Of a stretch of DNA of 64,000 bases, positions 2,679 to 34,530 are shown piece after piece. How positions within the stretch are numbered: the stretch's first letter is position 1; every line of letters starts with the position of its first letter. A model generated the notes under the pieces. The model did no database searches and had not been told where the DNA came from. It saw only the letters and a program-made list of their open reading frames with translations. The DNA is taken from contig JAHFKN010000001.1 of NCBI GenBank assembly GCA_023245355.1, positions 203,528 to 267,527 on the forward strand, written 5' to 3'. This stretch comes from Candidatus Gottesmanbacteria bacterium (GTDB lineage Bacteria; Patescibacteriota; Microgenomatia; UBA10105; UBA927). Position numbers and translations under genes: made by a program.

Positions 2679-3203
2679 GTGGAGAATGGATTTATTAGTA
2701 TGACGAAACCACCGTTTGAAGAGGTAGTTAAAAACTATATAAAACTAGTTTATTTCTTTGCCAAGAAATCCTTGTCTGATCAGGCAGACGTAGATGACAT
2801 GGTACAAGAAACCTTTTTGAAGGCTATGAAAACATACGATAAATTTAACTTTAAGAGTGAGGGTGAGTTGAAAAGCTGGTTATTAACCATTTGTCGCCAC
2901 CTGATCATCGATCAATTCCGCTCCCGCAAGCATACCGTGACCATGGATGACGAAAAAATGGATCTGTTTGGCAATGGTGAAACAGAAGAACTGCTGGAAG
3001 CCCAAATTGATAAAGAAGATAGCGTAAAGAAAATACAGAAGGCACTCGCCTTGTTAAAACCCACGGAAAAACAAATAATGAATCTGCGTGTATGTGAAGA
3101 GATGGAATTTAAAGAGATCGCCATTGCCCTATGTTCCAAAGAGGCTGCCGTTAAAATGCGATTTTATCGTGCATTAATTAAGCTCAAAGAATCACTGATA
3201 TGA
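2679..3203 (+). CDS. ECF-family sigma-70 factor
   Basis: Region 2 (LLTICRHLIIDQFRSRKH) and region 4 helix-turn-helix (EEMEFKEIAIALCSKEAAVKMRFYRALIKL) are both present. Confidence 0.8.
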   Translation: MENGFISMTKPPFEEVVKNYIKLVYFFAKKSLSDQADVDDMVQETFLKAMKTYDKFNFKSEGELKSWLLTICRHLIIDQFRSRKHTVTMDDEKMDLFGNGETEELLEAQIDKEDSVKKIQKALALLKPTEKQIMNLRVCEEMEFKEIAIALCSKEAAVKMRFYRALIKLKESLI

Positions 3204-4108
3204 AATTCAAAAGTATTATCAAACAAGCATTCGAGAAAGAGGAGCTAAAAGAAGCCAGACACATCGATGATCTGGAGAGCCAAATATTGATGAAGGTCCG
3301 GGCGGAGAAGACAGAAGAAGCAGAACTCAAAAGGTATTTTAGGCCAATAGAATCCTTTTGGAACTTTAAAATTCCGTATGCATTTGCCGTAGCTGTGTTG
3401 GCGGTTATATTCATTACCTTCACCACATCATCTGTTTTGGCAAAGGGTTCGGTCATGGAAATGCTGATAAACCTGAGGAACGCCCTACAACAGGAGCTGT
3501 CGCAGCTATTGAACACTGACCCAACTTATAGAGATAAAGGAACCCAGAAATACCAGCAAGCCCAAAAGGAATGGTGCTTGGTCAGCGCACGACCGGCAGA
3601 GGCGCGTGAGCAGGCGGTAGAAGCCGTAAGGGACTTCTTAGACCGGCCTGATGCCAATGTGGAGTATGAGTGTGTGCGAAACCCAAGCAATAACACGAAC
3701 GAGCAACCACAGACCGAAAGTTATATCGTCGACTTTGACCGCTTTACTATTGATACTCAAACCAATCAAATTACAGAGATGGCACCGACCGGCGGGAGAT
3801 GGGGAGAGAATAAAGACGGTACACGCTGGTTTAGTCCACAGAAGGAATACGACTACACCGCACGATATAGCCAGACTGAGGCAGAACAATTAGCCAGAAC
3901 CTTTATAGCTGACCATGAGAAGGCGTTGGGAAAGATTGATCTAAGCAAACTTACCCTAGAGAGTGGAAAGAAAGACGATGGATCCGGCAAAGTAAACTAC
4001 TTTTTCATCTGGAAAACTGATGGACAGGGTGAGGACATACCCCAGTTAAATATCTCTTATACCCAGGGTGGGCAACTCATCTCCTTCTTGAACGAATTGA
4101 TACACTGA
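3200..4108 (+). CDS. Putative anti-sigma factor, single-pass membrane protein
   Basis: Its start overlaps the sigma-factor stop (ATGA). It has a cytoplasmic N-terminus, one TM helix (YAFAVAVLAVIFITFTT) and a ~200-aa ectodomain. Confidence 0.5.
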   Translation: MKFKSIIKQAFEKEELKEARHIDDLESQILMKVRAEKTEEAELKRYFRPIESFWNFKIPYAFAVAVLAVIFITFTTSSVLAKGSVMEMLINLRNALQQELSQLLNTDPTYRDKGTQKYQQAQKEWCLVSARPAEAREQAVEAVRDFLDRPDANVEYECVRNPSNNTNEQPQTESYIVDFDRFTIDTQTNQITEMAPTGGRWGENKDGTRWFSPQKEYDYTARYSQTEAEQLARTFIADHEKALGKIDLSKLTLESGKKDDGSGKVNYFFIWKTDGQGEDIPQLNISYTQGGQLISFLNELIH

Positions 4109-4341
4109 TCCTGATTTTCTTCAGTAATCACCACTAACAAACAGCACTTGACATTCTCAAACTAATTTGTAATAGTTGATGTATGAGAAGTAAGAATAGT
4201 AAGTATTTACTTATACTACACACGCTTCGTTATCTCTTCCATAAGACATCCAGTGATTGTTCCCAAAACTCCCTTCCTTTGACAACCCAGGTTATTAGTA
4301 ATAACTGGGTTTATTTATAAATTAGTGCTTATAGAAAGGAG

Positions 4342-5145
4342 GTGAAAAATAAAAAAGCTATGAAGTATCCAAAAAGAATGTTAGTAATTCTTCCCCTACT
4401 TGCTGTCTCCGCTTTTGTCGGCTTCGGTCTCGCAAAGACTGATACCGTCGGCGCACAGCAAGACCCAAAACAGGCGAGGATAGAAACTCTGCAAAAGAAG
4501 TACCTAGACGCAGTCGAAAATGCTAAGACAAATGGTGAGTTCACCACGAACCAATTCGGCGAGAAAGTCTACGCTGGTAAAACAGCTGACGACCTAAAGA
4601 GTCTAGAGAAAGAGGTTGGTACTGAGATACGAGAACTGACAGCGCGTCCCGCTGCGGATAGAGCCAAGGCCGTTGAAGCCGTCAATGGATGGAATGATAA
4701 ATTCCTCTATACGATAGATAATCAGCCAAAGCAAACTCTCCAATATGCTGGTCGGTCAGGACAAGTTCAAGGCAGCAAACTCATTGGCGCAGAGCGGTAC
4801 TTTTCGGAAGACTATCAATTCACAATCGACCCGCAAACCAACAAAATCGTTGAGATGTATCTACGTCCCAAAGAAGTTGGCGAACCGGCAGCGTTCGAAG
4901 ACATGACCCCACGCTTTACCGAAGCTCAGTTAGAGCAAAAAGCCCGACAATTGATCGAGGCACAAAACTTAGGCGTGAATCTAAGCTCTTTGAAGTTCGA
5001 GAAAAACCATAAGGTAGGAACCTTTTTCTACACATGGGAAGGTGAAAAGATAGCAGACGGAGTACAACCCTCGCTTTACGTGGCATTCACGCAAGGTGGG
5101 CAACTGATCGGCTACATCAACGCAGGCTTTTTTGACAAACTATGA
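4342..5145 (+). CDS. Secreted protein, paralog of the anti-sigma ectodomain
   Basis: Signal peptide MKYPKRMLVILPLLAVSAFVGFGLA. Shares blocks with the 3200..4108 ectodomain: ARPAADRAKAVEAV vs ARPAEAREQAVEAV, FTIDPQTNKIVEM vs FTIDTQTNQITEM, FTQGGQLIGYIN vs YTQGGQLISFLN. Confidence 0.6.
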   Translation: MKNKKAMKYPKRMLVILPLLAVSAFVGFGLAKTDTVGAQQDPKQARIETLQKKYLDAVENAKTNGEFTTNQFGEKVYAGKTADDLKSLEKEVGTEIRELTARPAADRAKAVEAVNGWNDKFLYTIDNQPKQTLQYAGRSGQVQGSKLIGAERYFSEDYQFTIDPQTNKIVEMYLRPKEVGEPAAFEDMTPRFTEAQLEQKARQLIEAQNLGVNLSSLKFEKNHKVGTFFYTWEGEKIADGVQPSLYVAFTQGGQLIGYINAGFFDKL

Positions 5146-5765
5146 AAAACATATTTTCAAAAATCTTAATAGCATTGGCGGTGATAGCGGTCATGGGCTT
5201 TACCAGCGTGAGTAGTGCATTGGCCTTTGGCGATGCATCTATTTACTGCACGGGTGGTGGCTACTTTGACAAATTCGGCCCCAGCCAATACTGGTCCGAA
5301 TTTACGAGTATGGGATGGTGTAACGCCCCAGCTGGCAACAACTGGTGCGAGAATGGACAATGTGCCCAAAACTCACCCTACAATACTGTGACTCGCAGTA
5401 TGTGGAGAACCTACTCAGGGAGTCAACAGAGTAACTACGCCCGTTGGAATATGGGTAACGATGGTGGTTATTGGTACTGGTTTGCCTTTATACCAAGTAA
5501 CTATGCGACCACCTCGAGGGCGCCGTATACGATTACCTACGCGGGTGGGAGCCAATACAACTTCACTGTTAACCAGAATGCTTATTCAAACATCTGGGTA
5601 ACTCCTGGTTCACGAACTGAGAATTTCACTCAGATCATGAATACATGGTTATCTGATGCGACGAGCGAAAGCCCGTCTCAGCAAATTGGTTTTGATGAGG
5701 TTCAGAAATGTTCTGAAGCAAGTCAATACAGTGCTTATTGTCCAGGCAACCATACCAGAAGGTAA
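5142..5765 (+). CDS. Secreted Cys/Trp/Tyr-rich protein, unknown function
   Basis: Signal peptide ILIALAVIAVMGFTSVSSALA. Start is translationally coupled to the previous gene (ATGA). The mature part is rich in C, W, Y and N. Confidence 0.5.
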   Translation: MKNIFSKILIALAVIAVMGFTSVSSALAFGDASIYCTGGGYFDKFGPSQYWSEFTSMGWCNAPAGNNWCENGQCAQNSPYNTVTRSMWRTYSGSQQSNYARWNMGNDGGYWYWFAFIPSNYATTSRAPYTITYAGGSQYNFTVNQNAYSNIWVTPGSRTENFTQIMNTWLSDATSESPSQQIGFDEVQKCSEASQYSAYCPGNHTRR

Positions 5766-5848
5766 TGGAGGAAGGTCAGGGCCAGCCCGTCAAAAGGCTG
5801 GCCTGACCCAGCAGAGAAAGAATATTTAAACTAAAATAAAAATGCAAT

Positions 5849-6391
5849 ATGAGAAATAAAAAGATAAACATCAAGGAAATAATCCTGATCGCTATTGCCT
5901 GCCTGGTAGTGACAACTGGCTCATATGCGATCTTTACCCATAAAGACAGTAGATTTGAGGCGGTAGACTTGGCCAACAGAACCGAGGATAAAGGAGTAGA
6001 AGATTACTTTGTCGAGAAACTTGGTATGAACGGCGAAGAAGCCAAGAAGTTTGCCGATCAAGGGGTGTCGTTTTATATCACTGGCACTACCAACCTGGAT
6101 GCTATTATCAGCAATCTCCATTACTATGGCCTGATTAAGGACGAGAAGGCCTTCAGAGAGGCATTGGCAAAAACTAAAGACACGCTGCCCGGTAATGAGA
6201 ATGCAATTAAAATAGGTAACAACACTATTGATATTCACGCTTACTATGGCCTGAAGAAGGGGCTCACCGCCTGGCAAGTAGCAGATGTACTACTTAATCA
6301 CCCGGTTTATTTGAAGGGTGAGGAATATAATTACATGTTTATGCCCGGAGAGTACTATGGTGATGCTGCCCAGAACACACCAGCACGATGA
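5849..6391 (+). CDS. Secreted or membrane-anchored protein, unknown function
   Basis: N-terminal hydrophobic segment IILIAIACLVVTTGSYAIF. Same strand as the rest of the cassette. Confidence 0.4.
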   Translation: MRNKKINIKEIILIAIACLVVTTGSYAIFTHKDSRFEAVDLANRTEDKGVEDYFVEKLGMNGEEAKKFADQGVSFYITGTTNLDAIISNLHYYGLIKDEKAFREALAKTKDTLPGNENAIKIGNNTIDIHAYYGLKKGLTAWQVADVLLNHPVYLKGEEYNYMFMPGEYYGDAAQNTPAR

Positions 6392-6416
6392 TAGTAAAAT
6401 TTAGTAGAATACGCTT

Positions 6417-6986
6417 ATGAAGTTAAAAACATTTTTAGTCTGTATCGCAACAATTATTGCCTTAGGTTTTATCATTAAAAACTTCACTGGCAATAACTCA
6501 AAGCAGTCACCCTCCCCTGCGCCTGCTGAGGTAACCAAAACCACACCTGATGCTGTACTGAAACCAGGTAGATCTCTCAAACCAAACGAGGAGTTTATAT
6601 CACCCTTCGGTTTATATGTAACTGTCCCCAAAGATATGACCTTCAGAAAAGAAGTAGCTGACGATGAAGGTATTATTCGTACAGTTGGGTTTTATATCGA
6701 AAACAGCAGTAAAGATAATCCCTATATGCTGTACGGATTATACGAAGCCAAAAATGTCGCCATTGATCAAACCATGGCAAGTGCCAAAAAAGATATGGTC
6801 GCCTCGACAATTAAAGACATAACAATCGGCGGGTATAAAGGTGTCGAAGGATTAATAACCGGCGACAAAACCAGATATATGGCAGTCATCGTCAAAGACG
6901 GCAAAAAGATCACCTTCTCGACTATTCCACCAACCGAAAGCAATAAAGTCATCACTGATCAGCTCCTCTCCACCTTCAGTTTTTAA
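6417..6986 (+). CDS. Secreted or membrane-anchored protein, unknown function
   Basis: N-terminal hydrophobic segment FLVCIATIIALGFII followed by a Ser/Pro-rich linker. Confidence 0.4.
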   Translation: MKLKTFLVCIATIIALGFIIKNFTGNNSKQSPSPAPAEVTKTTPDAVLKPGRSLKPNEEFISPFGLYVTVPKDMTFRKEVADDEGIIRTVGFYIENSSKDNPYMLYGLYEAKNVAIDQTMASAKKDMVASTIKDITIGGYKGVEGLITGDKTRYMAVIVKDGKKITFSTIPPTESNKVITDQLLSTFSF

Positions 6987-7050
6987 ATAACTTCTGACAG
7001 AAACGTTCTTGAAACAGACAATCTTCCCTTTGTAATATTGAAGCATAACT

Positions 7051-7124
7051 AGTTAGCCTAACGAATCAGTCGGGGCTTAGATTTATTTATTCGTAAAGAA
7101 TAGATGAACCTAAGCCCCTTTTTT
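7051..7124 (+). promoter_or_regulatory. Conserved box (GTTAG-C-CTAAC GAA N4 TCGGGGCT), long hairpin and U-run; copy 1
   Basis: Box at 7051-7076. Hairpin ggggcttag (7072-7080) pairs with ctaagcccc (7110-7118), then tttttt at 7119-7124. The same layout recurs at 14381-14461. Confidence 0.45.
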
Positions 7125-8978
7125 GTTATCTCTATGCCAGAAGTCATTGAAGAAAAAATATCAACCGAAAAAAACTACCAGCCTACCCCTGAAGAAGAAA
7201 AACTACTCATAAAATGGAAGGCCAGATTTAAACGTGCTAAAGAATTCCGTGAACCTTACCAAGCCAAGTGGTTGCGGATGTACCAACTCTACCGTGCCTA
7301 TCAACACAAGCAGAACTACGCTTATAACACCCGGCTGATGCCGCCGATCGCTTTTGAGATTGTTAAAACAGTGGTCTCTCGGTTGGCCACCGCTAAGCGC
7401 AAGACCACTATTATTCCCAGACACCAAGAGGATGTGAATTCAAAGGCATTAGGATCTTGGGGAAATCTGGTCAACTACGACTTTGACATTATTGATCTGA
7501 TCAAACGATTGCCTAACTGGATCGAATCTTCCGTTCTTTATGGAAACGGTATCGTTAAGCTTGCCTGGAAAGTCCTGAGTCGAAACGGCAAGGTAGTCTA
7601 TGACGATCCAACCATGGGACTTATTGACCTATGGGAACTGCTCCCAGCTCCAGAGACTGCAGATGACCTCCAGGATGGTTGCCCGTGGCTGATTCATCGT
7701 ATCGTTAAGCGGAAGGAAAAGATTGAAAAAGAAGAAACTGCCCGAGGTGAAAATAATATTTATAAGAACCTGGAGTTTTGTGAGCCGAAAATTGTTGAGG
7801 ATTGGAAAAAGGAACGGTATGAAATAAACGGTAAGAAAATGTCTCAGGTGGATGCCGGTACCAAGAAAGATGGTGGCGATGAGAAAATTGTCCCGGCCAA
7901 GTCAGACACCGAAAAACAACTAGAACTGTGGGAGTGTTGGGACTATGAAGAAGATAAACTGGTCGTTATTTGTAATGGCGAAATTCTTATTAGGGATGAC
8001 GAGAACCCATATCTGGGAGTAAACAACGGTCACATCTATGTTGACCTACCCGACATGCCACTCCTCTGGGAATTCTGGGCCACTGGCCATATCGAACCCG
8101 TCGAGACGACCATTCATGAAGTTGCTGACCTTAGAAACCAACGAATGGATGATGTGGTCTTAATGCTCGATCCTGTCGTTAAAATTCGTAAGGATTCCGG
8201 TATAACTAAAAACGATATCATCTTCTCTCCCGGCGCGACCTGGGAACTGAGAAAAATGGATGATGTGGTTATCGAAAGGCCACCAGAAATAAGCTTGATG
8301 GGAGTAAATGAAGATAAAATTATGCGAGATGAGATCTCCCGAACTCTGGCGCTTGGTGAATATATGCAAGGACAACCTCAGTCCCCCAATGAGCCGCTCG
8401 GGAAAGTGGCGGTGCTACTTGGTCAGAGTAACCTCCGATTAAGTATGAACGCCCAAAACATCGCGGTAGCACTAACCACAGTGGCCAATATCTTAATTCA
8501 ACTGAACCAGGAGTTTATAACGGAAGACAAATTATACCGGTTGGTAGGGAAAGAAGTCGACTTCAATGAGTTTAAAAAGGATGACAAAAAAGTGGTTGTG
8601 GACGCCATTGTTGAGGTGGAGCCGATTATACCTCCGGATAAAACCACGAGACTAAATCAAGTCCTTCTGATGTACGACAAGTTTATCGCCCAGGATAAGC
8701 CGGATCCGAACAATCCAGGGGAAGTAACACGCTGGTTGAAGCGTAAGCGCGAGCTTCAGAAGATGATTCTGGAAGAGCTGGATAAAGAGGAATATATAGA
8801 TGTGTTGCTGGGTCCGGAAGCAGAAGCTATGGCTCCACCTCAAACTAATAACGCACAAGCCCCCGTAACGCCAGCTGAGGGCCAAACTACACCAACAGAG
8901 CCAACTACAGCAGGTCCAAACAAAATTCAGCAGCTTATGGGAAAAATTCCAATTTTAGGGAAAATGCTGGGTGGTTAA
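7104..8978 (+). CDS. Portal (head-to-tail connector) protein; true start may be Met 7134
   Basis: About 620 aa, N-terminal EPYQAKWLRMYQLYR-type helix, Ala/Pro/Thr/Gln-rich C-terminus, placed between terminase and capsid. The track start contains the hairpin 3' arm and U-run. Confidence 0.5.
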   Translation: MNLSPFFVISMPEVIEEKISTEKNYQPTPEEEKLLIKWKARFKRAKEFREPYQAKWLRMYQLYRAYQHKQNYAYNTRLMPPIAFEIVKTVVSRLATAKRKTTIIPRHQEDVNSKALGSWGNLVNYDFDIIDLIKRLPNWIESSVLYGNGIVKLAWKVLSRNGKVVYDDPTMGLIDLWELLPAPETADDLQDGCPWLIHRIVKRKEKIEKEETARGENNIYKNLEFCEPKIVEDWKKERYEINGKKMSQVDAGTKKDGGDEKIVPAKSDTEKQLELWECWDYEEDKLVVICNGEILIRDDENPYLGVNNGHIYVDLPDMPLLWEFWATGHIEPVETTIHEVADLRNQRMDDVVLMLDPVVKIRKDSGITKNDIIFSPGATWELRKMDDVVIERPPEISLMGVNEDKIMRDEISRTLALGEYMQGQPQSPNEPLGKVAVLLGQSNLRLSMNAQNIAVALTTVANILIQLNQEFITEDKLYRLVGKEVDFNEFKKDDKKVVVDAIVEVEPIIPPDKTTRLNQVLLMYDKFIAQDKPDPNNPGEVTRWLKRKRELQKMILEELDKEEYIDVLLGPEAEAMAPPQTNNAQAPVTPAEGQTTPTEPTTAGPNKIQQLMGKIPILGKMLGG

Positions 8979-8983
8979 AATGA

Positions 8984-9373
8984 TCAGATGCTTTCTTGAT
9001 TGTGTGAAGCCAATTTAGAATCCTTAACGTTCCCAGTATTTAACGTACCTTTGGGCTCAATAAGAACTATGTGGACTTCTTCTTTTGCCTCGGGCTTGTG
9101 CTCGATTGGGTGGGGAATAATCACAAATTCACCCTCGTTTACTTGAACATCTTTATCTCGGAAATGAATTGTTAGTTGTCCCTTGATTACAAGAAATAAC
9201 TCATCTTCATTGTCGTGATGGTGCCAAACAAACTCTCCCTTGAGCTTTACAACTTGAACCTTATGGTTATTTAATTCACCGACGATCTTTGGATTCCAAT
9301 ACTCACTAAACAACGAGAGTTTATCTGCAATATTTACAACTTTCACGGAATAAGAGGTATTTTTCATAATCAT
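8984..9373 (-). CDS. Cupin-domain protein
   Basis: Cupin motifs: HHHDNEDELFLVIKG, then ...GEFVIIPHPIEH. Confidence 0.65.
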   Translation of the reverse strand: MIMKNTSYSVKVVNIADKLSLFSEYWNPKIVGELNNHKVQVVKLKGEFVWHHHDNEDELFLVIKGQLTIHFRDKDVQVNEGEFVIIPHPIEHKPEAKEEVHIVLIEPKGTLNTGNVKDSKLASHNQESI

Positions 9374-9439
9374 GAATATTGTAACAATTTTCTACATGAT
9401 TTGCTAGACTATATCAGTTGTAAGCAGTAACATAAGAAC

Positions 9440-10285
9440 ATGAACTACATAATTCGTCCAGCTACACGTAAGGAATTGTGTATCCCGATTGAGTGGGCGG
9501 CTAAAGAAGGTTGGAACCCAGGTCTTTTTGATGCTCGCGCTTTTTATTCTACGGATCCTCAAGGCTTTTTATTAGGATTGCTTGATGGAGAACCAATTGC
9601 TTCGATCTCGTCCGTTGCATATGATTCTAGTTTCGGTTTTCTTGGGTTTTATATTGTTAAACCCGAATATCGCGATAAAGGGTATGGCATTCAAATTTGG
9701 AATGCAGCAATAAAACATTTACCCACGCAAAACATTGGTCTAGATGGTGTACTAGCTCAACAGGAAAACTACAAAAAATCCGGTTTCAAATTAGCATATA
9801 GAAACATAAGATACGAAGGAATGGGTACTAGTGCTCATCAAGTGGATAATCCAAGTGTAATCCCCTTATCAAGCATTCAATTTGAACAGCTTTTTAAATA
9901 CGATAATCAAGTTTTTCCAACAAGCAGATCGGTATTTCTAAAAGAGTGGATCAAGCAATCGGAAAGCTTGGCAGTTGCTTACCAAAAAGATGGAAACCTA
10001 CTTGGATATGGGATGGTGAGAAAATGCCGAATCGGATATAAAGTGGGCCCTTTATTTGCTGACAATAAAGACATTGCAGATGTACTCTTTCAGAAAATGA
10101 GGTCTTTTGTTGGTCAAGATAAGCAAATATTTCTAGATACCCCAGGAGTAAATAAATCAGCAATTTTATTAGCTGAGAAGTATGGAATGAAACCAGTGTT
10201 TGAAACTGCCCGCATGTATACTAAAGACGTACCAAAAGTACAACTCAAAAAGGTTTTTGGAGTAACAACTTTTGAACTTGGATAA
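9440..10285 (+). CDS. GNAT-family N-acetyltransferase (two-lobed)
   Basis: GFYIVKPEYRDKGYGIQIWNAAIKH matches the acetyl-CoA binding motif A (R/Q-x-x-G-x-G/A). Confidence 0.6.
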   Translation: MNYIIRPATRKELCIPIEWAAKEGWNPGLFDARAFYSTDPQGFLLGLLDGEPIASISSVAYDSSFGFLGFYIVKPEYRDKGYGIQIWNAAIKHLPTQNIGLDGVLAQQENYKKSGFKLAYRNIRYEGMGTSAHQVDNPSVIPLSSIQFEQLFKYDNQVFPTSRSVFLKEWIKQSESLAVAYQKDGNLLGYGMVRKCRIGYKVGPLFADNKDIADVLFQKMRSFVGQDKQIFLDTPGVNKSAILLAEKYGMKPVFETARMYTKDVPKVQLKKVFGVTTFELG

Positions 10286-10305
10286 GCATCTTGAACACGT
10301 TAAAT

Positions 10306-10333
10306 TTGACAAAAGACGAATTTTTTGTATAAT
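10306..10333 (+). promoter_or_regulatory. Sigma-70-type promoter with extended -10
   Basis: TTGACA at 10306-10311, a 16-nt spacer, then TGTATAAT with TATAAT at 10328-10333. Confidence 0.55.
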
Positions 10334-10339
10334 ATACTC

Positions 10340-10500
10340 AATACTTAGCTGTGAAGGTCTTTGGCAAGCTGGAGCTGAGCATTCTAAAAGCGGTCTGAAC
10401 TTAAGCGATTATCGATAGTACAGACAATTAGGGTGGAACCACGGGTTAAAAGAAAACTCGTCCCTTTGTATAAGAAATTATATGAAGTGACGAGTTTTTT
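10340..10500 (+). promoter_or_regulatory. T-box riboswitch leader 1 (transcription-terminating type)
   Basis: Core AATTAGGGTGGAACCACGG at ~10426-10444. A terminator follows: cucguc...gacgag stem then UUUUUUU at 10494-10500. Stem-I-like ggcaagctggagc carries a GGC (Gly) triplet. Confidence 0.6.
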
Positions 10501-10671
10501 TGTTACTTCATATAACGACAAGTTAATAGTAGCGATGAAAGGCCTGGCAACCTGGAGCTACACCAACAGTTAAAGAGGGTAAGTTTACTGGAAATCATGA
10601 CTTACCAATTAGGGTGGAACCGCGACCATATATGGCCGTCCCTAAGCGAAAGCTTATGGAGGCATATATGG
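10501..10671 (+). promoter_or_regulatory. T-box riboswitch leader 2 (candidate translational, SD-sequestering type)
   Basis: Second core AATTAGGGTGGAACCGCGACC at 10607-10627. ccatatatggcc (10626-10637) can pair with ggcatatatgg (10661-10671), burying SD GGAGG (10658-10662) and ATG 10668. No U-run follows. Confidence 0.5.
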
Positions 10672-11921
10672 ATACACAACCATACTACAAAACAATAATT
10701 GAACAGATTGACAAGCATACTGCTTATAGGCAGGAATGCCTTAATCTGATCGCTTCAGAAAATGTCTGCAGTCCTGCTGTGGCCAAGATTCTATCTTCTG
10801 ATTTAACCAATCGTTACTCTGTTGGACGTCCTCGCGCGAGATGGTTCCCAGGATTACAGTACTACGACAAAGTTGAGGAAATTGCGGAAAAGCTTTCACA
10901 AAAACTATTCCATGTCCAGTATGCCAATGTTCAAGCCCCTACGGGAATGGTGGCTAATATGGCCGCTTATTTAGCGGTGCTTAAACCCAACGACCTGGTG
11001 TTAGCTCTGCGCGTTAAACACGGAGGACACTATAGTCATGTTGCCGAGAATATATTCAAAAGCTTCAACATCCGCGTTGAGGATCTTCCCTTTGATGAAC
11101 AGTCATATTCTGTAGACATTGAGAGAGCCATTGATCTCATTAGGGTTAAGAAACCACAAATGATTATTCTTGGAACTTCGGAGTTTTTATTCCCAGCACC
11201 CATTAGAGAATTAAGGCAGGTGTGCAACAAAACAAACACTAAAATTCTTTATGATGCCTCACATGTCTCAGGACTCGTGGCTGGACAAACTTTCCAAAAT
11301 CCAATGGCAGAAGGAGCAGATATTCTCACAATGAGCACCAATAAGACATTGGCTGCCCCAAGTCATGGACTTGTGGCCTGCAACGACACAGTCAAGTATC
11401 AGGCTGACTTTGAACATGCAATTACCCCTCTCCTAACGTCAAATCACCATGCGCACCATGTCGCTGCTTTGGCCATGACCTTGGCAGAGTTTGATGTTTT
11501 CGGACACGAATACGCTGCTCAAATTATTATGAATGCAAAAACTTTGGCACGAGCCCTTTATAACCAAGGGGTAAAGGTTTTATGCCCTGAAAAGGATTTT
11601 ACCGAGAGTCACACTGTTTTGATTGATACTGTGACCTCATCAAAAGAAGCAGTGCAGAAGTTGGCTGAGGCAAACATTATGACAAATTCGTTTCAACTTC
11701 CCTGGAATGAAGATGGGTTTGAAAGTGGAATCCGAATAGGAACAAACGAAATAACCAGACTTGGAATGAAAGAGTCAGAGATGAATGTTGTTGCCGATTT
11801 AATAGCAGCTGTTTTATTGAAAAAACAATCGATCGCTGAGATTAAACGGAAAGCACAAAATCTTAGATTGTCTTATCAGACAGTTAATTATTGTTTTAAT
11901 CCAGCTCAATTAAGTAGCTGA
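10668..11921 (+). CDS. glyA: Serine hydroxymethyltransferase-like PLP enzyme
   Basis: LIASENVCSPAV matches SHMT LIASENF; HGGHYSHV matches GGHLTHG; STNKTL sits at the PLP-lysine position. Start set at Met 10668 behind GGAGG. Confidence 0.7.
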   Translation: MDTQPYYKTIIEQIDKHTAYRQECLNLIASENVCSPAVAKILSSDLTNRYSVGRPRARWFPGLQYYDKVEEIAEKLSQKLFHVQYANVQAPTGMVANMAAYLAVLKPNDLVLALRVKHGGHYSHVAENIFKSFNIRVEDLPFDEQSYSVDIERAIDLIRVKKPQMIILGTSEFLFPAPIRELRQVCNKTNTKILYDASHVSGLVAGQTFQNPMAEGADILTMSTNKTLAAPSHGLVACNDTVKYQADFEHAITPLLTSNHHAHHVAALAMTLAEFDVFGHEYAAQIIMNAKTLARALYNQGVKVLCPEKDFTESHTVLIDTVTSSKEAVQKLAEANIMTNSFQLPWNEDGFESGIRIGTNEITRLGMKESEMNVVADLIAAVLLKKQSIAEIKRKAQNLRLSYQTVNYCFNPAQLSS

Positions 11922-11935
11922 AGGAGGTAAATTAT

Positions 11936-12478
11936 ATGGCAAAACCAGAACAGTCAGAATCAATGCAAGAATTCGAACAACGCTGTATTGAGACAGTGAA
12001 GCGAATGCGTGCTCAGGCTCACAAGGTGTTAGATAGGGCTGGAACAGTTCATAAAGCTCAACCGCTCAAGAAGTGGGAAAAGATTGTTTATCCCCTTCTG
12101 GGAATGAAGCCCGAAGGTTATATGGAGTTTGATTCGGCCAACGATCCACGATTAGCGATCGTCACAAGGGCGGCTGCTGGAGGACTGGTAACCCCAAGAG
12201 TTAGAGTTCTGGCACCATCTGAAAGAAACGAAATGTCAGCTATGGAAGTTCGACTGTCCGGCAAACAGCCAGAGACTGGAAGAAATGTCGACATCATGAG
12301 TGTTGACCTCCCAGAGGGATCAAATAGTGCAGTACAAACAAAAGTAATTTTGTGGACCGCACCCTTACCAGGGAGGATTCCATTTTATGAAGTCATGGAT
12401 TCAAACTTTGCCGAAGTAGTAGACTTAACAATAAGAACTCTGGAACACATTAATAAATGTTTATCTGAAAGGAAATAA
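11936..12478 (+). CDS. Hypothetical protein between glyA and glyQS
   Basis: ORF with a GAAGGAGG ribosome-binding site, sitting in the same operon. No motif recognised. Confidence 0.45.
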   Translation: MAKPEQSESMQEFEQRCIETVKRMRAQAHKVLDRAGTVHKAQPLKKWEKIVYPLLGMKPEGYMEFDSANDPRLAIVTRAAAGGLVTPRVRVLAPSERNEMSAMEVRLSGKQPETGRNVDIMSVDLPEGSNSAVQTKVILWTAPLPGRIPFYEVMDSNFAEVVDLTIRTLEHINKCLSERK

Positions 12479-12480
12479 AT

Positions 12481-13860
12481 ATGGACACAACAATGCAAAA
12501 AATCGTCAGTTTATGTAAAAGAAAAGGGTTTGTTTATCCAAACTCTGAAATTTACGGAGGAATTCAGGGGTTCTATGATTACGGACCACTAGGAGCCGAA
12601 CTACAAAATAACATCAAGCGGGTTTGGTGGAAATGGATGACCCAACTCCATGATGATGTCTATCCAATTAACGGAGCAATCATCACCCATCCGAAGGTTT
12701 GGGAAGCATCAGGACACGTTCAGAACTTCACCGATCCGTTAGTCGACTGCAAAAAATGTCATAAACGTTTCCGAGCCGATCACTTGGTTGAGGAATTCCT
12801 CACAGAGGATGCTGGAACTGCTAGTCAAAATCGCTTGGATCAGATAGCAGCAGAACTTAAATCAAGACACATTGTTTGCCCTGAGTGTGGAGGAGAGTTT
12901 ACCGAGGTCCGCAAATTCAATCTTATGGTTGAAACTTCCCTTGGGGTTGTTGAAGGCGAAAAGATGACGGCTTATCTCAAGGGGGAGGCATGCCAAACGA
13001 TCTACCTGGATTACCAGAATGTGCTTAATTCGACTAATGCCAAAATTCCTTTTGGGATATGTCAAATCGGGAAGGCTTTCAGAAATGAAATCACCCCAGG
13101 ACATTTTTTATTTCGTCAGCGTGAGTTTGAACAGTGGGATCTCCAATGGTTTACCAATCCCAAAGAAATGGATAAATGGTATGAGTACTGGAAAGCAGAA
13201 AGAATGATGTGGTATCAAAGCCTAGTGAATCATAAAGATCGTCTGCGCTTTAGACAACACGATCAAAACGAACTTGCTCATTACGCGAAAAAGGCATTCG
13301 ATATCGAGTATGAGACTCCATTTGGATGGAAAGAATGGGAAGGAATCCACTGGCGTGGAGACTGGGATTTGTCCCGTCATGGGCAATACAGTGGGAATGA
13401 TTTTACCTATACTGATCAAAAAACAGGTGATAAATTTATTCCTTGGATTGTCGAAACATCAGGAGGAGTTGATCGCACTTTCCTTTTCCTGCTCATTGAT
13501 GCTTACGATGAAGAGGTCGTAGATGGGAAAACGAGAGTGGTTCTACATTTACGACCAGACCTAGCTCCGTACAAAGTAGCGGTCTTCCCGTTGGTATCCA
13601 ACAAAGAAGATATTGTCGAAAAGGCAAAGTCAATCTACAGAGCATTAAAACCTAGCATTGCAACCATTTGGGACGATATCGGGAATGTTGGAAAGAGATA
13701 TCGAAGACAAGATGAAGTTGGTACTCCGTGGTGTGTCACGGTTGATTACCAAACACTTCAGGACGATACGATAACAGTTCGAGATCGAGACACTATGAAA
13801 CAAGAAAGAGTGAAGGTATTAGATCTGGAATACTTTTTTGCCGAGAAGTTGAAAATTTAA
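12481..13860 (+). CDS. glyQS: Glycine--tRNA ligase (dimeric class II GlyRS)
   Basis: Class II motif 2 QIGKAFRNEITPGHFLFRQREFEQWDLQWF. N-terminal GFVYPNSEIYGG...YDYGPLG is typical of alpha2 GlyRS. Confidence 0.85.
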   Translation: MDTTMQKIVSLCKRKGFVYPNSEIYGGIQGFYDYGPLGAELQNNIKRVWWKWMTQLHDDVYPINGAIITHPKVWEASGHVQNFTDPLVDCKKCHKRFRADHLVEEFLTEDAGTASQNRLDQIAAELKSRHIVCPECGGEFTEVRKFNLMVETSLGVVEGEKMTAYLKGEACQTIYLDYQNVLNSTNAKIPFGICQIGKAFRNEITPGHFLFRQREFEQWDLQWFTNPKEMDKWYEYWKAERMMWYQSLVNHKDRLRFRQHDQNELAHYAKKAFDIEYETPFGWKEWEGIHWRGDWDLSRHGQYSGNDFTYTDQKTGDKFIPWIVETSGGVDRTFLFLLIDAYDEEVVDGKTRVVLHLRPDLAPYKVAVFPLVSNKEDIVEKAKSIYRALKPSIATIWDDIGNVGKRYRRQDEVGTPWCVTVDYQTLQDDTITVRDRDTMKQERVKVLDLEYFFAEKLKI

Positions 13861-13867
13861 AACAGGA

Positions 13868-14254
13868 TTACTCATCGTACTGGCTTAGAAGTGCTTCCAA
13901 GATGGGGTGGATTTGTCTGTCGACCATCAACCTCCCCTTTTCGGTATCCTTAATGACACCCGTTTCTTTTGCTATCTGCAGAAGTCGTGAGATTTCCTCA
14001 TCTCTCAGTGGTTTACCTTCGTCATCAACTCCAACAACCGCTTTATACGCAGCTTCATCAAATGTTGCTGGTTCAGGTGCAAATGGGGCTAGATAGAGAA
14101 TGCCTGTTAGAACTCTCTCTCTGCCTGCATTTCCAAATAGTTGTCTATCTTTTTCTGTGAGCAATGAATCTGCAATCAATTCAAATTGAGCCCTAGTAGT
14201 ATCAGGTTTTAAAAGTTGTCCAAGTTTTGGTAATGGTTGTTCGGCTTTTTCCAT
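13868..14254 (-). CDS. Hypothetical protein
   Basis: 128-aa ORF on the minus strand, reading toward the gly genes. No motif recognised. Confidence 0.35.
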   Translation of the reverse strand: MEKAEQPLPKLGQLLKPDTTRAQFELIADSLLTEKDRQLFGNAGRERVLTGILYLAPFAPEPATFDEAAYKAVVGVDDEGKPLRDEEISRLLQIAKETGVIKDTEKGRLMVDRQIHPILEALLSQYDE

Positions 14255-14380
14255 ATAAATAATCCTTAAAAGATATAAAGATTATAACATTATATGGCCT
14301 GAAGTTCAAAAAATAACACAAAAAGACATAAACATTATTGAAGTCTCCATTACCCCTTGATTACTATTAAACCATTAAGA

Positions 14381-14461
14381 AGTTAGCCTAACGAAACTAT
14401 CGGGGCTGTGGCTTCTGAATATACGCAAGATGCGTGTGTTTAGAAGTTACAGCCTTTTTTT
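14381..14461 (+). promoter_or_regulatory. Conserved box, long hairpin and U-run; copy 2
   Basis: agttagcctaacgaaactatcggggct at 14381-14407. Hairpin ggctgtggcttct (14404-14416) pairs with agaagttacagcc (14442-14454), then ttttttt at 14455-14461. Confidence 0.45.
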
Positions 14462-14472
14462 AAAGGAAAAAT

Positions 14473-14775
14473 ATGAATAACGATACAACTAATCCTCAAA
14501 ACGACAATATGGTTAACCAAGATACCCAGTCTGTTGGCTTTAAAAAAGGTACCGAACCAAATAAAGACGAAGCCTGGAAAAAAGTAGAGGCGGTATTTAA
14601 CGCTGCAAAGAACGCCTTCATTGATAAAAATTCACCGTTTGCTGACGTCCTCGATAGTTTAATTGCTACCTTGATGGATATTCGGGCAGCTGAAAAACAA
14701 GGGTTAAGCGGTATGGGAACTGATAACCCACAAATGGATATCCCTGCCCCAACTGATAATGGGCAAAATTTATAA
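14473..14775 (+). CDS. Hypothetical small protein
   Basis: ORF directly downstream of the conserved box with an AGGAAA-like ribosome-binding site. Confidence 0.4.
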   Translation: MNNDTTNPQNDNMVNQDTQSVGFKKGTEPNKDEAWKKVEAVFNAAKNAFIDKNSPFADVLDSLIATLMDIRAAEKQGLSGMGTDNPQMDIPAPTDNGQNL

Positions 14776-14781
14776 ACAAAT

Positions 14782-15036
14782 ATGGCACAAACTGACGAAC
14801 AAAAATTAGAACGCGGCCGAGATATCTGGGAAATGACCCAGACAAAAGGCTGGCAGATTTTAAGTGACTCAATTGCTGAAGAAATCCAGTTGGAAACAGC
14901 TGAGCTTTTAGATTGCCCTGTTAAGGACGACCTAGAACACAAACAATTAATAAAAGCTTACAAAAAAGTTTTACGCATGGTTGAAGGAGCGATCGCCGAT
15001 CGAGACGAAGCTGCTCAAAACCTGCGGGGAGTATAA
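14782..15036 (+). CDS. Hypothetical small protein
   Basis: ORF tightly packed with its neighbours on the same strand. Confidence 0.4.
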   Translation: MAQTDEQKLERGRDIWEMTQTKGWQILSDSIAEEIQLETAELLDCPVKDDLEHKQLIKAYKKVLRMVEGAIADRDEAAQNLRGV

Positions 15037-15041
15037 AAAAT

Positions 15042-15860
15042 ATGGAAGACGACAAACAAAAAGAACAAGACGAATTAAAATCTTTACTCAATAACCCCGA
15101 CGAGGGTGATGAGGGAGATAAAGGTAAAGACAACTCCGACAAGCAAGATGATCCACCGGCTGATGATAACCAAGACGATACTGGAAACGATAACGGCCAA
15201 GACAATGGTGCTGGTGATGATGATAAAAATAAGGACGAAAAAGATAAAGGAAAAGACGATCGTTGGAATGGTAAGAGCCGGGAAGATGTCATCAAGGAAG
15301 TTCAATCATTGGAAACGAGAATTGCTAGTCTCGAGGGCAAGAAAAAAGAAGATAAAGATAATAAGCCAAATCCGGATGAGAAAAAGGAAACGGTAAATCT
15401 CCCCTCTGCAGAAGAACTCCAAAAAATGACTCCGAGTGATTTTGCTAAGTGGGTCCTAGCCCGAATTGATGAAGGCGTCAAAACCACTCTATCCAGTCAA
15501 GAAAAAGTAAGAAGTGCAGTCCGTCAAGAAATTGCCGAAGCCAAAAAGGATCACCCACTGGACGATCCTGACTACCGAAAAATGGTCTTAACCATTATCG
15601 ATGCTGCCAGTGCCAAAGGAACAACTGTGTCCTTAAAAGAAGCCTGTGAGCAGGTCGATGCCTTTATCGGCAAACACAAAGGGAAATCTGAAGATATATC
15701 AGATGATGAGCGCAATCGCCTTAAAAAAGCGAAGGCTCAGGTTGAGAGTGGAGCGGGCGCTCCGACTCAACCCGATAGCTCGGATGCCGAAACACAACGC
15801 ATCCAGAAAGCTCTCGGTGGAAGCGGGTCAAAAAGCCCCTTGGGAGGGTTAGGAATCTAA
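15042..15860 (+). CDS. Putative scaffolding protein (very acidic, low complexity)
   Basis: D/E/K-rich N-terminus (DEGDEGDKGKDNSDKQDDPPADDNQDD...), a helical middle, and position immediately before the capsid gene. Confidence 0.45.
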   Translation: MEDDKQKEQDELKSLLNNPDEGDEGDKGKDNSDKQDDPPADDNQDDTGNDNGQDNGAGDDDKNKDEKDKGKDDRWNGKSREDVIKEVQSLETRIASLEGKKKEDKDNKPNPDEKKETVNLPSAEELQKMTPSDFAKWVLARIDEGVKTTLSSQEKVRSAVRQEIAEAKKDHPLDDPDYRKMVLTIIDAASAKGTTVSLKEACEQVDAFIGKHKGKSEDISDDERNRLKKAKAQVESGAGAPTQPDSSDAETQRIQKALGGSGSKSPLGGLGI

Positions 15861-15902
15861 CCTCCTGTTATTAGTTAAAAAGAAGGGAGGTGAAAAAATA
15901 TT

Positions 15903-17069
15903 ATGCCATCAGCAACAGGAATAAAAGGAACAGGAAATTTAGGAGTCTTACGTAAGTACGACGTCGCCGACGTGGTCTCGCTACTCGACGTTAATCGTTA
16001 TCCTCTTTTGGCCATCTTGACCAATGCAGGAAAAGATCCAGCAAGTGGTGAAGGTAAAGCCTTGAAAAAGAGTGAAGCGGTAGACCCGGAGTTTAAGTGG
16101 TATGAAGATGACTTTGGTCGTCGCCAATTAACCGGTTCAGCAACTGTCGATCCCGATGGAGGGAACTTGACTGTCACCGGTCAATCACAGTACTTACAAG
16201 TTGGAGATGTAATTTTGGCTGCTGCCCAGAAATGGGTCTTCCAAGTTACTGCTATTGTCGATGCCAACACCGTCACGGTTGGTCCCGAATTAGGAGGGGC
16301 AACCGGCGCAGCTGCTTCGGCAGTTGGAGATGTCTGGCTTATCGGAAACGCTAATGAAGAGGGTGCAGGATTAAGAGATATAAAGTCAACGATCATCCAA
16401 GAAATATCGAACTACTGCCAAATCTTCAGAACGCCAGTCGGTATTACTGAAACATCCAAAAACACTAAGGGATTAACCAAGGAAAACGACTTTGATTTTC
16501 AAAGGCGAAAGAAAGGTATCGAGCACTATGTCGATATCGAAAGATCGTTCTTATTTGGCAAGAAAGGCATCATCACTACAGGGACTCATCCAAAACGATT
16601 CACTGCTGGTATCTTGTCTAGGATTGCAACCTACGCTACAGCGAGTGTTGATACAGAATCAGAATTTGATGCTTGGTTGGAGAGCTTATTTGCACACGGA
16701 AATACAGAAAAATATTTGCTTGCATCTGCGGCCGTGGTTTCCATGGTCAACGGTTGGGCAAAGGGAAAGCTACAGATCGTAAGTCCAACAAAGGCTTATG
16801 GACTGCGAATCGTAACCTACGATTCTCCACACGGAACGCTACACATGATCAAACATCCATTATTAACTGGAACGACATACGGAAATTATGCTGTCGGTTT
16901 GGACATGGAATGTTTGACCTACCGCTACTTGAGCAATCGAGATACCAAGCTTTTGACTAACCGTCAGGCCAATGGTGAAGATAGTCAAGTCGATGAATAT
17001 CTGACCGAATGCGGTCTGCAAATGGAGCAAGAGTCACGCCATGCCATTATGAGCATCGGTGCGCTCTAA
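15903..17069 (+). CDS. Major capsid protein (putative)
   Basis: 388 aa, follows the scaffold, strong GGGAGGTGA ribosome-binding site, a terminator-like hairpin pair downstream, and Gly/Thr/Ala-rich beta-type composition. Confidence 0.5.
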   Translation: MPSATGIKGTGNLGVLRKYDVADVVSLLDVNRYPLLAILTNAGKDPASGEGKALKKSEAVDPEFKWYEDDFGRRQLTGSATVDPDGGNLTVTGQSQYLQVGDVILAAAQKWVFQVTAIVDANTVTVGPELGGATGAAASAVGDVWLIGNANEEGAGLRDIKSTIIQEISNYCQIFRTPVGITETSKNTKGLTKENDFDFQRRKKGIEHYVDIERSFLFGKKGIITTGTHPKRFTAGILSRIATYATASVDTESEFDAWLESLFAHGNTEKYLLASAAVVSMVNGWAKGKLQIVSPTKAYGLRIVTYDSPHGTLHMIKHPLLTGTTYGNYAVGLDMECLTYRYLSNRDTKLLTNRQANGEDSQVDEYLTECGLQMEQESRHAIMSIGAL

Positions 17070-31570: not shown

Positions 31571-31596
31571 AAAAACAGACCCCATTCGGGGTCTTT
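31571..31596 (+). terminator. Intrinsic terminator at the composition boundary
   Basis: cagaccccattcggggtc hairpin followed by ttttttt. Confidence 0.5.
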
Positions 31597-32591: not shown

Positions 32592-32599
32592 TGGACGGA

Positions 32600-33598: not shown

Positions 33599-33612
33599 GA
33601 TACAATCTATGC

Positions 33613-34488: not shown

Positions 34489-34530
34489 GGCCCGGATAAT
34501 TTGATACAATACGTCCGTATAAAGAGTCGC

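Follow-up and report, generated by a model that had tools for sequence, protein, structure and literature searches.

The closest described counterpart of the element analyzed here is the licS leader, in which the RAT hairpin overlaps the terminator by 8 nt and the antiterminated state costs 6.6 kcal/mol, a cost that is paid by LicT binding (PMC5393181, PMC12591593). In RAT hairpins, the apical loop is variable, and the internal loops are conserved and read by the protein (PMC5393181, PMC12591593). The average terminator stem in E. coli and B. subtilis has 7-9 bp, a 15-bp stem has been termed extraordinarily long, and long stems such as TerR of pLS20 withstand processive antitermination by conAn (PMC10325885). 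In phage lambda, late expression proceeds by antitermination from the host-type promoter PR' through the promoter-proximal terminator tR', and Q loads via a DNA site and a sigma-dependent pause near the start. In the lambda boxB hairpin, which overlaps no terminator, the conserved loop is what is recognized. HK022 put-type RNAs bind the zinc-binding domain of the RNA polymerase beta' subunit with two stem-loops and use no protein factors. The element described here, found in prophages of Patescibacteria (CPR), appears to be of the terminator/antiterminator attenuator kind, and its sequence and hairpin have no Rfam family. It works most like the RAT/terminator leaders, yet it is outside the RAT family. 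Its unusual features are very long terminator stems, its occurrence in CPR prophage late operons, and its duplication at cargo boundaries.

The two copies analyzed lie in the window, that is, the whole 64-kb stretch of DNA. From position 1 to ~31.6 kb, the window is the late half of a prophage in a Patescibacteria/Microgenomates genome. This was concluded from the G+C content (~43% over 1 to ~32 kb and ~51% beyond), from phage genes on the left and cellular genes from 31647 on the right (Na/Ca exchanger, MltG/YceG, methyltransferase, and tRNA-Thr), and from the closest named homologues of MltG, which were in Patescibacteria, Microgenomates, Woesebacteria, and Gottesmanbacteria. No near-identical DNA match was detected by megablast among INPHARED phages or E. 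coli genomes. The coordinates of the features are collected in Table 1.

Table 1. Positions of the features of the two element copies and of the phage genes around them in the window
Feature	Positions	Strand	Details
Sigma-70-type promoter, copy 2 (class C)	14338-14367	+	-35 TTGAAG 14338-14343, 18-nt spacer, -10 TACTAT 14362-14367; consensus match
Predicted transcription start, copy 2	~14374	+	predicted from the promoter
AT hairpin, copy 2 (the box of the original prediction)	14385-14407	+	nascent-RNA fold
AT outer helix, copy 2	A14385-U14407, G14386-C14406, C14387-G14405, C14388-G14404, U14389-G14403	+
AT bulge, copy 2	A14390-A14391	+
AT inner helix and loop, copy 2	C14392-G14402, G14393-C14401, A14394-U14400; loop 14395-14399	+
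Long terminator-like (T) hairpin, copy 2	14403-14455	+	25 bp, apical loop 14428-14430
U-tract, copy 2	14455-14461	+	7 T, directly 3' of the GC-rich stem base
Sigma-70-type promoter, copy 1 (class P)	7009-7038	+	TTGAAA, 18-nt spacer, TAATAT; positionally conserved; start predicted at ~7045
AT hairpin, copy 1	7055-7077	+
AT outer helix, copy 1	A7055-U7077, G7056-C7076, C7057-G7075, C7058-G7074, U7059-G7073	+
AT bulge, copy 1	A7060-A7061	+
AT inner helix and loop, copy 1	C7062-G7072, G7063-C7071, A7064-U7070; loop 7065-7069	+
T hairpin, copy 1	7072-7118	+	20 bp with one 1x1 mismatch
U-tract, copy 1	7119-7124	+
TerS	207-830
TerL	814-2361
ECF-type sigma factor	2679-3203
Portal	7134-8978	+	PHROG head-tail adaptor / portal; ATG 7134; downstream of copy 1
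Two small proteins	14473-14775, 14782-15036	+	downstream of copy 2; first start codon 14473
Likely scaffold	15042-15860	+
Major capsid protein	15903-17069	+	PHROG major head protein, E = 1.4e-30

The left part of the prophage also encodes an amidase-containing protein and a 1451-aa protein. Downstream of the sigma gene come an overlapping gene for a CPR-specific protein of 302 aa and several genes whose products have hydrophobic N-terminal segments. Together with these membrane or secreted neighbours, the sigma gene resembles a sigma/anti-sigma cargo module, and secreted cargo is also what the genes from sigma to portal appear to encode. Between the portal gene and copy 2 lie 5.3 kb of unrelated genes, including those for a cupin, an acetyltransferase, a class II aminoacyl-tRNA-synthetase-like protein, and a methyltransferase preceded by a perfect TTGACA-16-TATAAT promoter, as well as the minus-strand ORF 13868-14254. 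The block 14473-17069 is syntenic in ~60 relatives. The late operon runs on to ~30.5 kb, and no internal terminator was convincing before 31577; apart from the two element copies, the prophage has one convincing terminator, at 31577-31594, which has an ordinary 7-bp stem and marks the operon end.

Copy 2, at 14381-14461 on the plus strand, reads AGTTAGCCTAACGAA-ACTA-TCGGGGCT, followed by a long inverted repeat and TTTTTTT. At 7051-7124, also on the plus strand, the 15-mer and TCGGGGCT were identical to those of copy 2, the 4-nt spacer and the inverted repeat differed, and TTTTTT ended the copy. The pattern AGTTAGCCTAACGAA-NNNN-TCGGGGCT matched exactly twice in 64 kb, both times on the plus strand (7051-7077 and 14381-14407), and the 23 specified bases common to both copies had no match in 100 dinucleotide-preserving shuffles. 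The original prediction that both places share one architecture of box, hairpin, and T-run was thus confirmed, the similarity of the copies being above chance level, and copy 2 was also correctly placed between the minus-strand ORF and the plus-strand block from 14473. Since the box is repeated and its folding is strand-specific, as shown below, the observation is real. The results further supported the proposal that a conserved cassette of box and hairpin precedes the late structural genes: the two copies are homologous regulatory cassettes, with the portal block downstream of one and the scaffold/capsid block downstream of the other.

Searches with the capsid and portal proteins led to 43 viral contigs, a DNA pattern scan of GTDB genomes gave 34 real and 5 chance matches, and a profile search of metagenomes gave 79 loci. 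In total, 101 distinct homologous elements were collected across IMG/VR, the GTDB genomes, and metagenomes, each with a promoter upstream and with portal (class P) or scaffold/capsid genes (class C) downstream. Genome matches were in MAGs named Shapiro-, Woese-, Davies-, Gottesman-, Collier-, Roizman-, and Nomurabacteria and WWE3, and some were in low-GC MAGs labelled "uncultured Pseudomonadales/Gammaproteobacteria". The GTDB contigs, up to 1.1 Mb long, often carried two matches each, and elements also came from many groundwater and sediment metagenomes.

Among 73 portal loci with upstream DNA, 35 were of type A and 34 of type B, three had a variant box (UCU for CCU), and one was truncated. 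Type A is the form in the window and has two copies, one of class P before the portal gene and one of class C before the scaffold/capsid block. Type B phages and the locus L008 have a single copy, before the portal gene. The distance between copies was 2.0 kb when the class C copy directly followed the portal gene and 7.3-7.7 kb or more with cargo inserted; post-portal cargo ranged from 0 to >9 kb, and cargo can also precede the class P copy. For class C, the median identity to the window copy was 89% in the element, 60% in the 80 nt upstream, and 52% in 400 nt of downstream coding DNA; the corresponding values for class P were 82%, 56%, and 69%. Rfam scans of the window brought only two tRNAs to the gathering threshold, and permissive scans of copy 2 and one type B element returned chance matches (miRNA precursors etc.) far below threshold.

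A promoter of the form TTGnnn-17/18-TAnnnT stood upstream of every element copy, at the same position across relatives. Many phages had full-consensus promoters (TTGACA-17-TACAAT or TTGACA-N14-TGCTAAAAT), and TGcTAAAAT was also seen. The distance from the -10 element to the box was 18-29 nt across relatives, so the box would start at about +12 to +23 of the predicted transcript. In relatives, the start codon followed the hairpin by 10-25 nt, often without a Shine-Dalgarno sequence.

The unit conserved across relatives is (G)CCTAACGAA-N4-TCGGGGCT. The box is not conserved as a DNA palindrome; it folds as a hairpin in the predicted nascent RNA. GTTAG-C-CTAAC forms a perfect DNA palindrome in the window, but its left arm, GTTAG, is restricted to the window lineage, relatives having ..GTAAAG, ..AACCG, or ..ATTCG before CCTAAC, and a viral scan with a pattern that included GTTAG found nothing. 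The suggestion that the palindromic half serves as the operator of a divergent minus-strand promoter consequently did not hold up: besides the unconserved arm, the minus-strand gene beside copy 2 is cargo found in one other locus only (L075), the predicted minus-strand promoter (14309-14281) lies ~75 nt left of the box, and the RNA-hairpin signs described next (a U-G wobble, C-to-U changes, compensatory changes, a variable loop, and a hairpin inserted in distant relatives) do not suit a double-stranded DNA site of fixed spacing.

As RNA, the box is a 23-nt hairpin, 5'-(A)GCCU[AA]CGA[A-NNNN]UCGGGGC(U)-3', which we call the small antiterminator (AT) hairpin. Its outer helix GCCU/GGGC is separated by two bulged purines from the inner helix CGA/UCG, which closes a 5-nt loop holding the variable N4 spacer. 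In all type A elements, it was the MFE structure of nascent RNA ending in GGGGCU, with energies of -7.6 to -7.7 kcal/mol (copy 2: -7.7) and a mean pair probability of ~0.95, which was still 0.84 when 22 nt of the next stem were added. An alignment of 27 distinct 5' parts was used for covariation analysis. The seven core pairs formed in all 27 sequences, with two compensatory pairs: the terminal pair was G:C in 25 and A:U in two, and the third inner pair was A:U in 24 and G:C in three. In two sequences, one C:G pair was changed to U-G. The covariation score exceeded that of all 500 shuffles, and registers slid along the alignment had at most 58.6% of cells paired. This covariation comprises few independent events, and most AT pairs are invariant.

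The base before CCU, the base after GGGG, and its partner in the 3' arm of the long stem formed the triplet G/C/G in 99 of the 101 elements and A/U/A in two, which represent independent lineages (L007 and L038; one of type A class C, the other of type B). The 3'-arm partner also switched in both A:U lineages, so each of the competing pairings has been preserved. Two viral scans for further A...U variants returned the known L007 lineage and chance matches only. Box positions 1 and 2 were only C or U and always faced G; the invariant U-G wobble and the C/U changes fit plus-strand RNA and misfit duplex DNA. In type B, a separate hairpin is inserted between the half-boxes, which are 26-31 nt apart as compared with 8 nt in type A, and its stem took at least five different covarying forms (GUCCGG/CCGGAC, GUUCCGAU/AUCGGAAC, GUCUC/GAGAC, GUUCUA/UAGAAC, and GCCUG/CAGGC). 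Insertion into the loop of an RNA helix is usual; the type B insertion is incompatible with a DNA site of fixed spacing.

The box is followed by the long terminator-like (T) hairpin. The plus-strand RNA of copy 2 had an MFE of -40.8 kcal/mol (z = -8.3) as compared with -21.5 for the minus strand, and that of copy 1 had -31.1 kcal/mol (z = -5.7) as compared with -25.5; the minus strands fold much worse because the stems are rich in G-U pairs. In both window copies, as in terminators, the stem base GGGGCU/AGCCCC is followed by 6-7 U. A U-rich run (median 6 U in 8 nt) followed the stem in 101 of 101 elements, a set whose detection criteria included a minimum of 5 U in the 8 nt past the stem. Furthermore, a T-rich run stood directly after the stem in every listed relative that extended past the stem and in all real matches found by the box only. 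In class C stems, 98.9% of cells were paired, with 3 compensatory and 11 one-sided pairs, and in class P stems, 97.8% were paired, with 4 compensatory pairs; the one-sided changes (G-U to A-U or G-C) numbered 7-11 across the classes. The class P and class C hairpins differ from each other, and each is conserved across phages. The upper stem sequence is conserved more than pairing requires, which suggests that the hairpin may have a further role. The motif ACGCA-aga-TGCGT, which had been described as a small hairpin nested in the big loop and specific to copy 2, is actually the apex of the continuous 25-bp helix 14403-14455; it is specific to copy 2 within the window, but among relatives it is kept in all class C copies. 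Stem length was 18-40 pairs (median 25) among relatives. With 20-25 bp in the window, the stems are far above the usual terminator length, which we count against the attenuator reading discussed below.

The two structures share a strand. G14403-U14407 form the 3' strand of the AT outer helix and also the bottom five pairs of the T stem by the U-tract. Since the AT 3' strand is thus the 5' base of the T stem, the two structures are mutually exclusive. The overlap is 5 nt in copy 2 and 7 nt in copy 1. In copy 2, the full terminator had -40.4 kcal/mol and the best structure that keeps AT had -35.0, a gap of 5.4; in copy 1, the values were -31.0 and -18.4, a gap of 12.6. A conserved second structure that shares the base of the terminator stem is what defines terminator/antiterminator systems in general.

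On these structures and their overlap, conservation, covariation, and placement, we base the reading that each copy is a promoter-proximal transcription attenuator acting at the RNA level, which we hold with moderate confidence. As judged from the sequences, the leader probably decides whether the structural genes of the virus are transcribed. Promoter use and termination in the CPR host are predicted from the match to consensus. The sigma-70-type promoter would start the transcript ~11-12 nt before the box, and the box would fold first, as the 23-nt AT hairpin. The 3' strand of its outer helix would then be reused as the 5' base of the long hairpin, which ends with GGGGC/GCCCC before the U-tract. 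By default, the AT helix would be displaced by the terminator strand and a short RNA of ~80-88 nt would be released; this default follows from the higher stability of the terminator, by 5.4 and 12.6 kcal/mol. The portal and capsid blocks would thereby be silent in the lysogen, and the cassette would also shield them from transcription entering from the variable upstream cargo genes. During lytic growth, a putative factor, probably an early phage protein, would hold AT via its invariant stem and bulge. With AT held, the remaining 20-bp stem would stop 5 nt before the U-tract, and RNA polymerase would enter the late genes; at this distance from the RNA 3' end, the stem would be unable to release the polymerase. 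Both the factor, in its existence as well as its origin, and the insulating role are putative.

A relative, L085, encodes an ImmA/HTH repressor module at 897-1782, which indicates that the phage family is temperate. For a temperate phage with near-consensus host-type promoters before its structural genes, a block after initiation would be needed. Insulation from cargo would likewise provide a rationale for the second copy, which is located where post-portal cargo is inserted. Some 43 proteins from L085 and from the window, which covers the late half of the prophage, were scanned with Pfam and PHROG; no domain of the CAT, ANTAR, Q, N, or NusG-like kind was detected, and no CAT_RBD/PRD match either, although small proteins may escape such detection. 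The ECF-type sigma factor is an unlikely antiterminator candidate, because homologues turned up in only 13 of the loci fetched and its neighbours are cargo-like. Against the attenuator reading counts L008, in which promoter, hairpin, and U-tract are present without the AT box. In type B, a second terminator-like hairpin without its own AT lies just before the portal start codon, so a purely local switch would be insufficient; the arrangement hints at processive action, as in N/nut or put, either of the factor or of the RNA.

The likeness to the RAT/LicT leaders lies in the terminator being the more stable fold, by 5.4 kcal/mol in copy 2 (12.6 in copy 1) compared with 6.6 in licS, and in an AT/T overlap of 5-7 nt compared with 8 nt. 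However, the sequence is unrelated, and the AT hairpin has 23 nt compared with ~30 nt in RAT. It also contains one 2-nt bulge (AA or GA) in place of the two internal loops of RAT, which sets it apart from that family. The target is a phage structural operon, whereas sugar genes are controlled in the BglG/SacY/LicT systems; the terminator stem of 20-25 bp and the lack of a detected CAT/PRD protein among the ~43 proteins are further differences. To our knowledge, CAT proteins are rare outside Bacillota, Pseudomonadota, and Actinomycetota.

Similarly, the arrangement recalls lambda PR'-tR', in that the late genes of a temperate phage immediately follow a promoter of the constitutive host type, the terminator close to this promoter would yield a short RNA in the lysogen, and late expression would occur by antitermination. 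In contrast to the DNA site and pause used by Q, an RNA hairpin here competes with the terminator, the variable promoter distance and insertions tolerated by the CPR-phage element differ from a fixed position, and no Q homologue was seen among the ~43 scanned proteins. As in lambda N/nut (boxA-boxB) and other systems with arginine-rich-motif antiterminators, the reader of a small phage RNA hairpin near the promoter could be an early protein of small size and low conservation, which would explain both the undetected domain and the second terminator of type B. Unlike boxB, however, AT has a variable loop and a conserved stem and bulge, and it overlaps the terminator. The stem resembles TerR of pLS20 in being far above the 7-9 bp average, and by analogy, conAn-resistant long stems would suit an insulator placed after cargo genes. 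TerR, though, ends its operon, whereas the CPR-phage hairpins head the operon after their own promoter and have a built-in competing hairpin.

The strongest of the other readings, although unlikely, is a factor-independent, cis-acting antitermination RNA like HK022 put, Tn916 canT, or conAn2, in which AT and, directly abutting it, the top 20 bp of the long stem would bind the transcribing RNA polymerase and confer terminator resistance, with timing by promoter repression only. Like those RNAs, which are 70-100 nt long and head long operons of mobile elements, the element is structured, promoter-proximal, and at the head of a long operon, and its alternative fold consists of two adjacent stem-loops, as in put (PMC9378689). 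This reading is also favored by a long-stem sequence conserved beyond the needs of pairing, by the second terminator-like hairpin ~100 nt downstream in type B, which calls for processivity, and by the failure to find a protein factor among the ~43 proteins scanned. However, put, canT, and conAn2 are not terminators, whereas the dominant fold here is a hairpin with a U-tract, and no sequence similarity is known (PMC9378689, PMC11658703, PMC10325885). The full terminator is 5-13 kcal/mol more stable than the two-hairpin fold, the GC-rich base and the U-tract, needless for a purely put-like element, are kept in every copy, and the late operon in the window is without convincing internal terminators to overcome; nor was there an Rfam match. 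We consider it quite unlikely, and a shade more so, that the small and long hairpins together form a self-sufficient sensor, either a tiny riboswitch-like aptamer, whose conserved bulge and stem would bind a metabolite or host factor indicative of the condition of the CPR cell or of that cell's own host, or a put-like RNA that reprograms RNA polymerase and works without a phage protein. If this were true, RNA alone would set the timing of structural gene expression in a temperate phage that infects an ultra-small bacterium.

It is improbable that the copies are a pair of sRNA genes, each producing an abundant trans-acting RNA of ~80-88 nt (e.g., for immunity or host takeover), with the late genes expressed via leak-through or from elsewhere. 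A promoter, a conserved 5' part, and a terminator are indeed the usual anatomy of a bacterial sRNA, and the short RNA is produced anyway if the attenuator model holds. However, the conserved 5' part is paired and thus not a free seed, and no complementary target was found in the window, where the sole exact 9-mer complement lay in a host gene, at chance frequency. Moreover, the element is always in sense orientation and immediately before the portal/capsid genes, which have no other promoter. Equally improbable is an RNA-processing or 5' UTR element, in which the 20-25 bp helix would be an RNase III site, an mRNA stabilizer, or a translational operator and the U-tract incidental. The stem amounts to two helical turns, far longer than typical terminators (PMC10325885), its G-U pairs and sequence are conserved, and the proximity of the start codon, often without a Shine-Dalgarno sequence, would suit such a role; this reading nevertheless leaves unaccounted for the conserved GC-rich base and U-tract of all variants and the competition of AT for exactly the bottom pairs.

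A DNA-level site (a divergent-promoter operator, a Q-binding or pause element, or a promoter for a phage ECF-type sigma) is very improbable and was largely refuted by the comparative data, given that the perfect palindrome, the sigma gene of the prophage, and AAC and CG motifs that loosely recall ECF promoters stand against an unconserved left arm, half-box and -10-to-box distances that vary (with a covarying hairpin between the half-boxes in type B), a U-G wobble and C-to-U changes that fit RNA only, and a sigma gene that is found in only a subset of element-carrying phages and is accompanied by membrane/secreted proteins.

Several specific candidates were rejected. ECF-sigma promoters have a -35 element (..AAC) and a -10 element (CGT-like) ~16-17 bp apart; the corresponding motifs here were AAC-TCG at 7 nt (AAC-CGGGG at 8 nt) in type A and GAC-CGGGG at 26-31 nt in type B. 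A sigma-dependent pause or Q-like site did not agree with the hexamer TAACGA, which lacks the final T of a -10-like pause element (TAnnnT) in the early transcribed region, with the variable promoter distance, or with the tolerated 20-nt insertion. Some likeness to the hammerhead motif CUGANGA...GAAA was seen in type B (CUGACGG-stem-UAAAC) and in a few relatives (CUGACGA). A hammerhead ribozyme was rejected, since the commonest variant, CUAACGA, has lost G5, type B deviates at A9 and G12, and none of the ribozyme models scored. In guanidine-II (mini-ykkC) RNAs, ACGR forms loops; here, it lies in the stem and bulge and not in a tetraloop. An anti-antiterminator in the leader was dismissed as well, because class C alone has the UUAGG...CCUAA pairing, which class P does not conserve, and an extended A-tract/U-tract pairing (AACGAA with UUUGUU) failed because its G is not conserved. 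Recombination cassettes of the T4 promoter/stem-loop type were rejected, since recombination between the copies would delete the portal gene.

Hardly anything is known about how phages of Patescibacteria regulate their genes, and the hosts cannot be grown alone. In this setting, the element is a concrete, widespread, and testable control point in CPR prophages, a new RNA motif that is a candidate for an Rfam entry, and its AT hairpin is a ready bait for the putative antiterminator. The attenuator reading suggests a way for temperate CPR phages to silence structural genes behind strong host-type promoters. It also suggests how these phages may tolerate large, variable cargo beside the portal gene, each late block having its own promoter-attenuator cassette.

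Within a sub-lineage of relatives carrying related prophages, namely loci L033 (7900-7975), L049, L068, L116 and L118, the copy of the element before the portal gene (class P) and that before the scaffold/capsid block (class C) were found to be identical in box and loop in any one phage. Even an A-to-G change of a bulged base was present in both copies alike in L116 and L118. On sequence comparison, these matching boxes suggest gene conversion between the two copies. A further case of homogenisation may be seen in the window, where the same six bases, AGTTAG, stand 5' of CCTAAC in both copies. The window's closest relatives (L089, L090, L120 and L151) likewise have these bases in common between copy P and copy C; in most other phages, the bases at this position are not alike. 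In the window and these relatives, AGTTAG adds one A-U pair to the small hairpin. The class C promoters of L033 and L049 additionally contain an inverted repeat, CTTGAC-AAAGG-GTCAAG, spanning the -35 element, which is a possible operator.

Natural variants of the leader were also observed. The leader in L008 (1490-1660) is a natural variant lacking the antiterminator hairpin: it has a promoter, TTGACA-17-TAAAAT, a purine-rich sequence, a 90-nt hairpin built on a GGGGCU base, and a U-tract, and the CCURACGR box is absent. At about 5940-6000 in L155, the class P hairpin is reduced to its 3' arm and U-tract, and unrelated sequence replaces the 5' arm, box and promoter, indicating a natural deletion or recombinant. 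Type B leaders, from phages with a single copy of the element before the portal, contain a second conserved hairpin with a U-tract about 100 nt 3' of the main element, abutting the portal start codon, with more small hairpins in between (examples are L019 2204-2229, L036 about 5960-5995, and L123).

Further features of the window
Feature	Position	Description
74-aa protein	2345-2569	right after TerL; weak match to DUF2292 (YezD-like)
ECF-type sigma factor gene	2679-3203	between terminase and portal
302-aa protein	3200-4108	overlaps sigma factor gene end; homologues in CPR genomes only
Paralogue of 302-aa protein	4342-5145	31% identity across C-terminal part
AGTTAG, class P copy	7051-7056	
Portal to class C element	8979-14330	cargo interval
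Promoter	10306-10333	TTGACA-16-TATAAT; perfect sigma-70 consensus
Cargo methyltransferase gene	10614-11921	3' of the promoter
Cargo gene	12481-13860	class II aminoacyl-tRNA-synthetase-like; tRNA-synt_2b core and HGTP_anticodon domain
AGTTAG, class C copy	14381-14386	
Bidirectional terminator	31577-31594	ordinary 7-bp stem; late operon end
Host genes	31647-34604	Na/Ca exchanger, MltG, methyltransferase, tRNA-Thr (at 34531)

As judged from the window and L033, L116, L118, L043 and L101, the interval from the portal to the class C element forms a hot spot for insertions. The amount of cargo there varies: some relatives have 0 kb, their copies standing 2.0 kb apart, others have 5-6 kb, and certain IMG/VR contigs carry >9 kb. 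The genes differ from phage to phage and are unrelated. The consensus promoter in this interval is a candidate for expressing the cargo methyltransferase in the lysogen.

In window 2679-6986, the paralogue is followed by three proteins whose N-termini contain hydrophobic segments. This stretch resembles a sigma/anti-sigma module that carries secreted cargo and lies within the packaging/head region. The 74-aa protein is kept in several type A relatives (those with both P and C copies), with and without the sigma gene.

Since the late-operon terminator is followed by host genes, the right prophage junction was placed in the interval from about 30.5 to 31.6 kb. The window contains no integrase.

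Finally, one prophage family is common to Patescibacteria (CPR) metagenome-assembled genomes and to those named 'uncultured Pseudomonadales/Gammaproteobacteria' (L050, L054-L056, L062, L063, L066-L068, L074, L076, L078, L081 and L082). The latter loci have a GC content of about 36-47% on contigs as long as 950 kb, and proteins of these genomes have homologues in CPR. Their labels are probably wrong.
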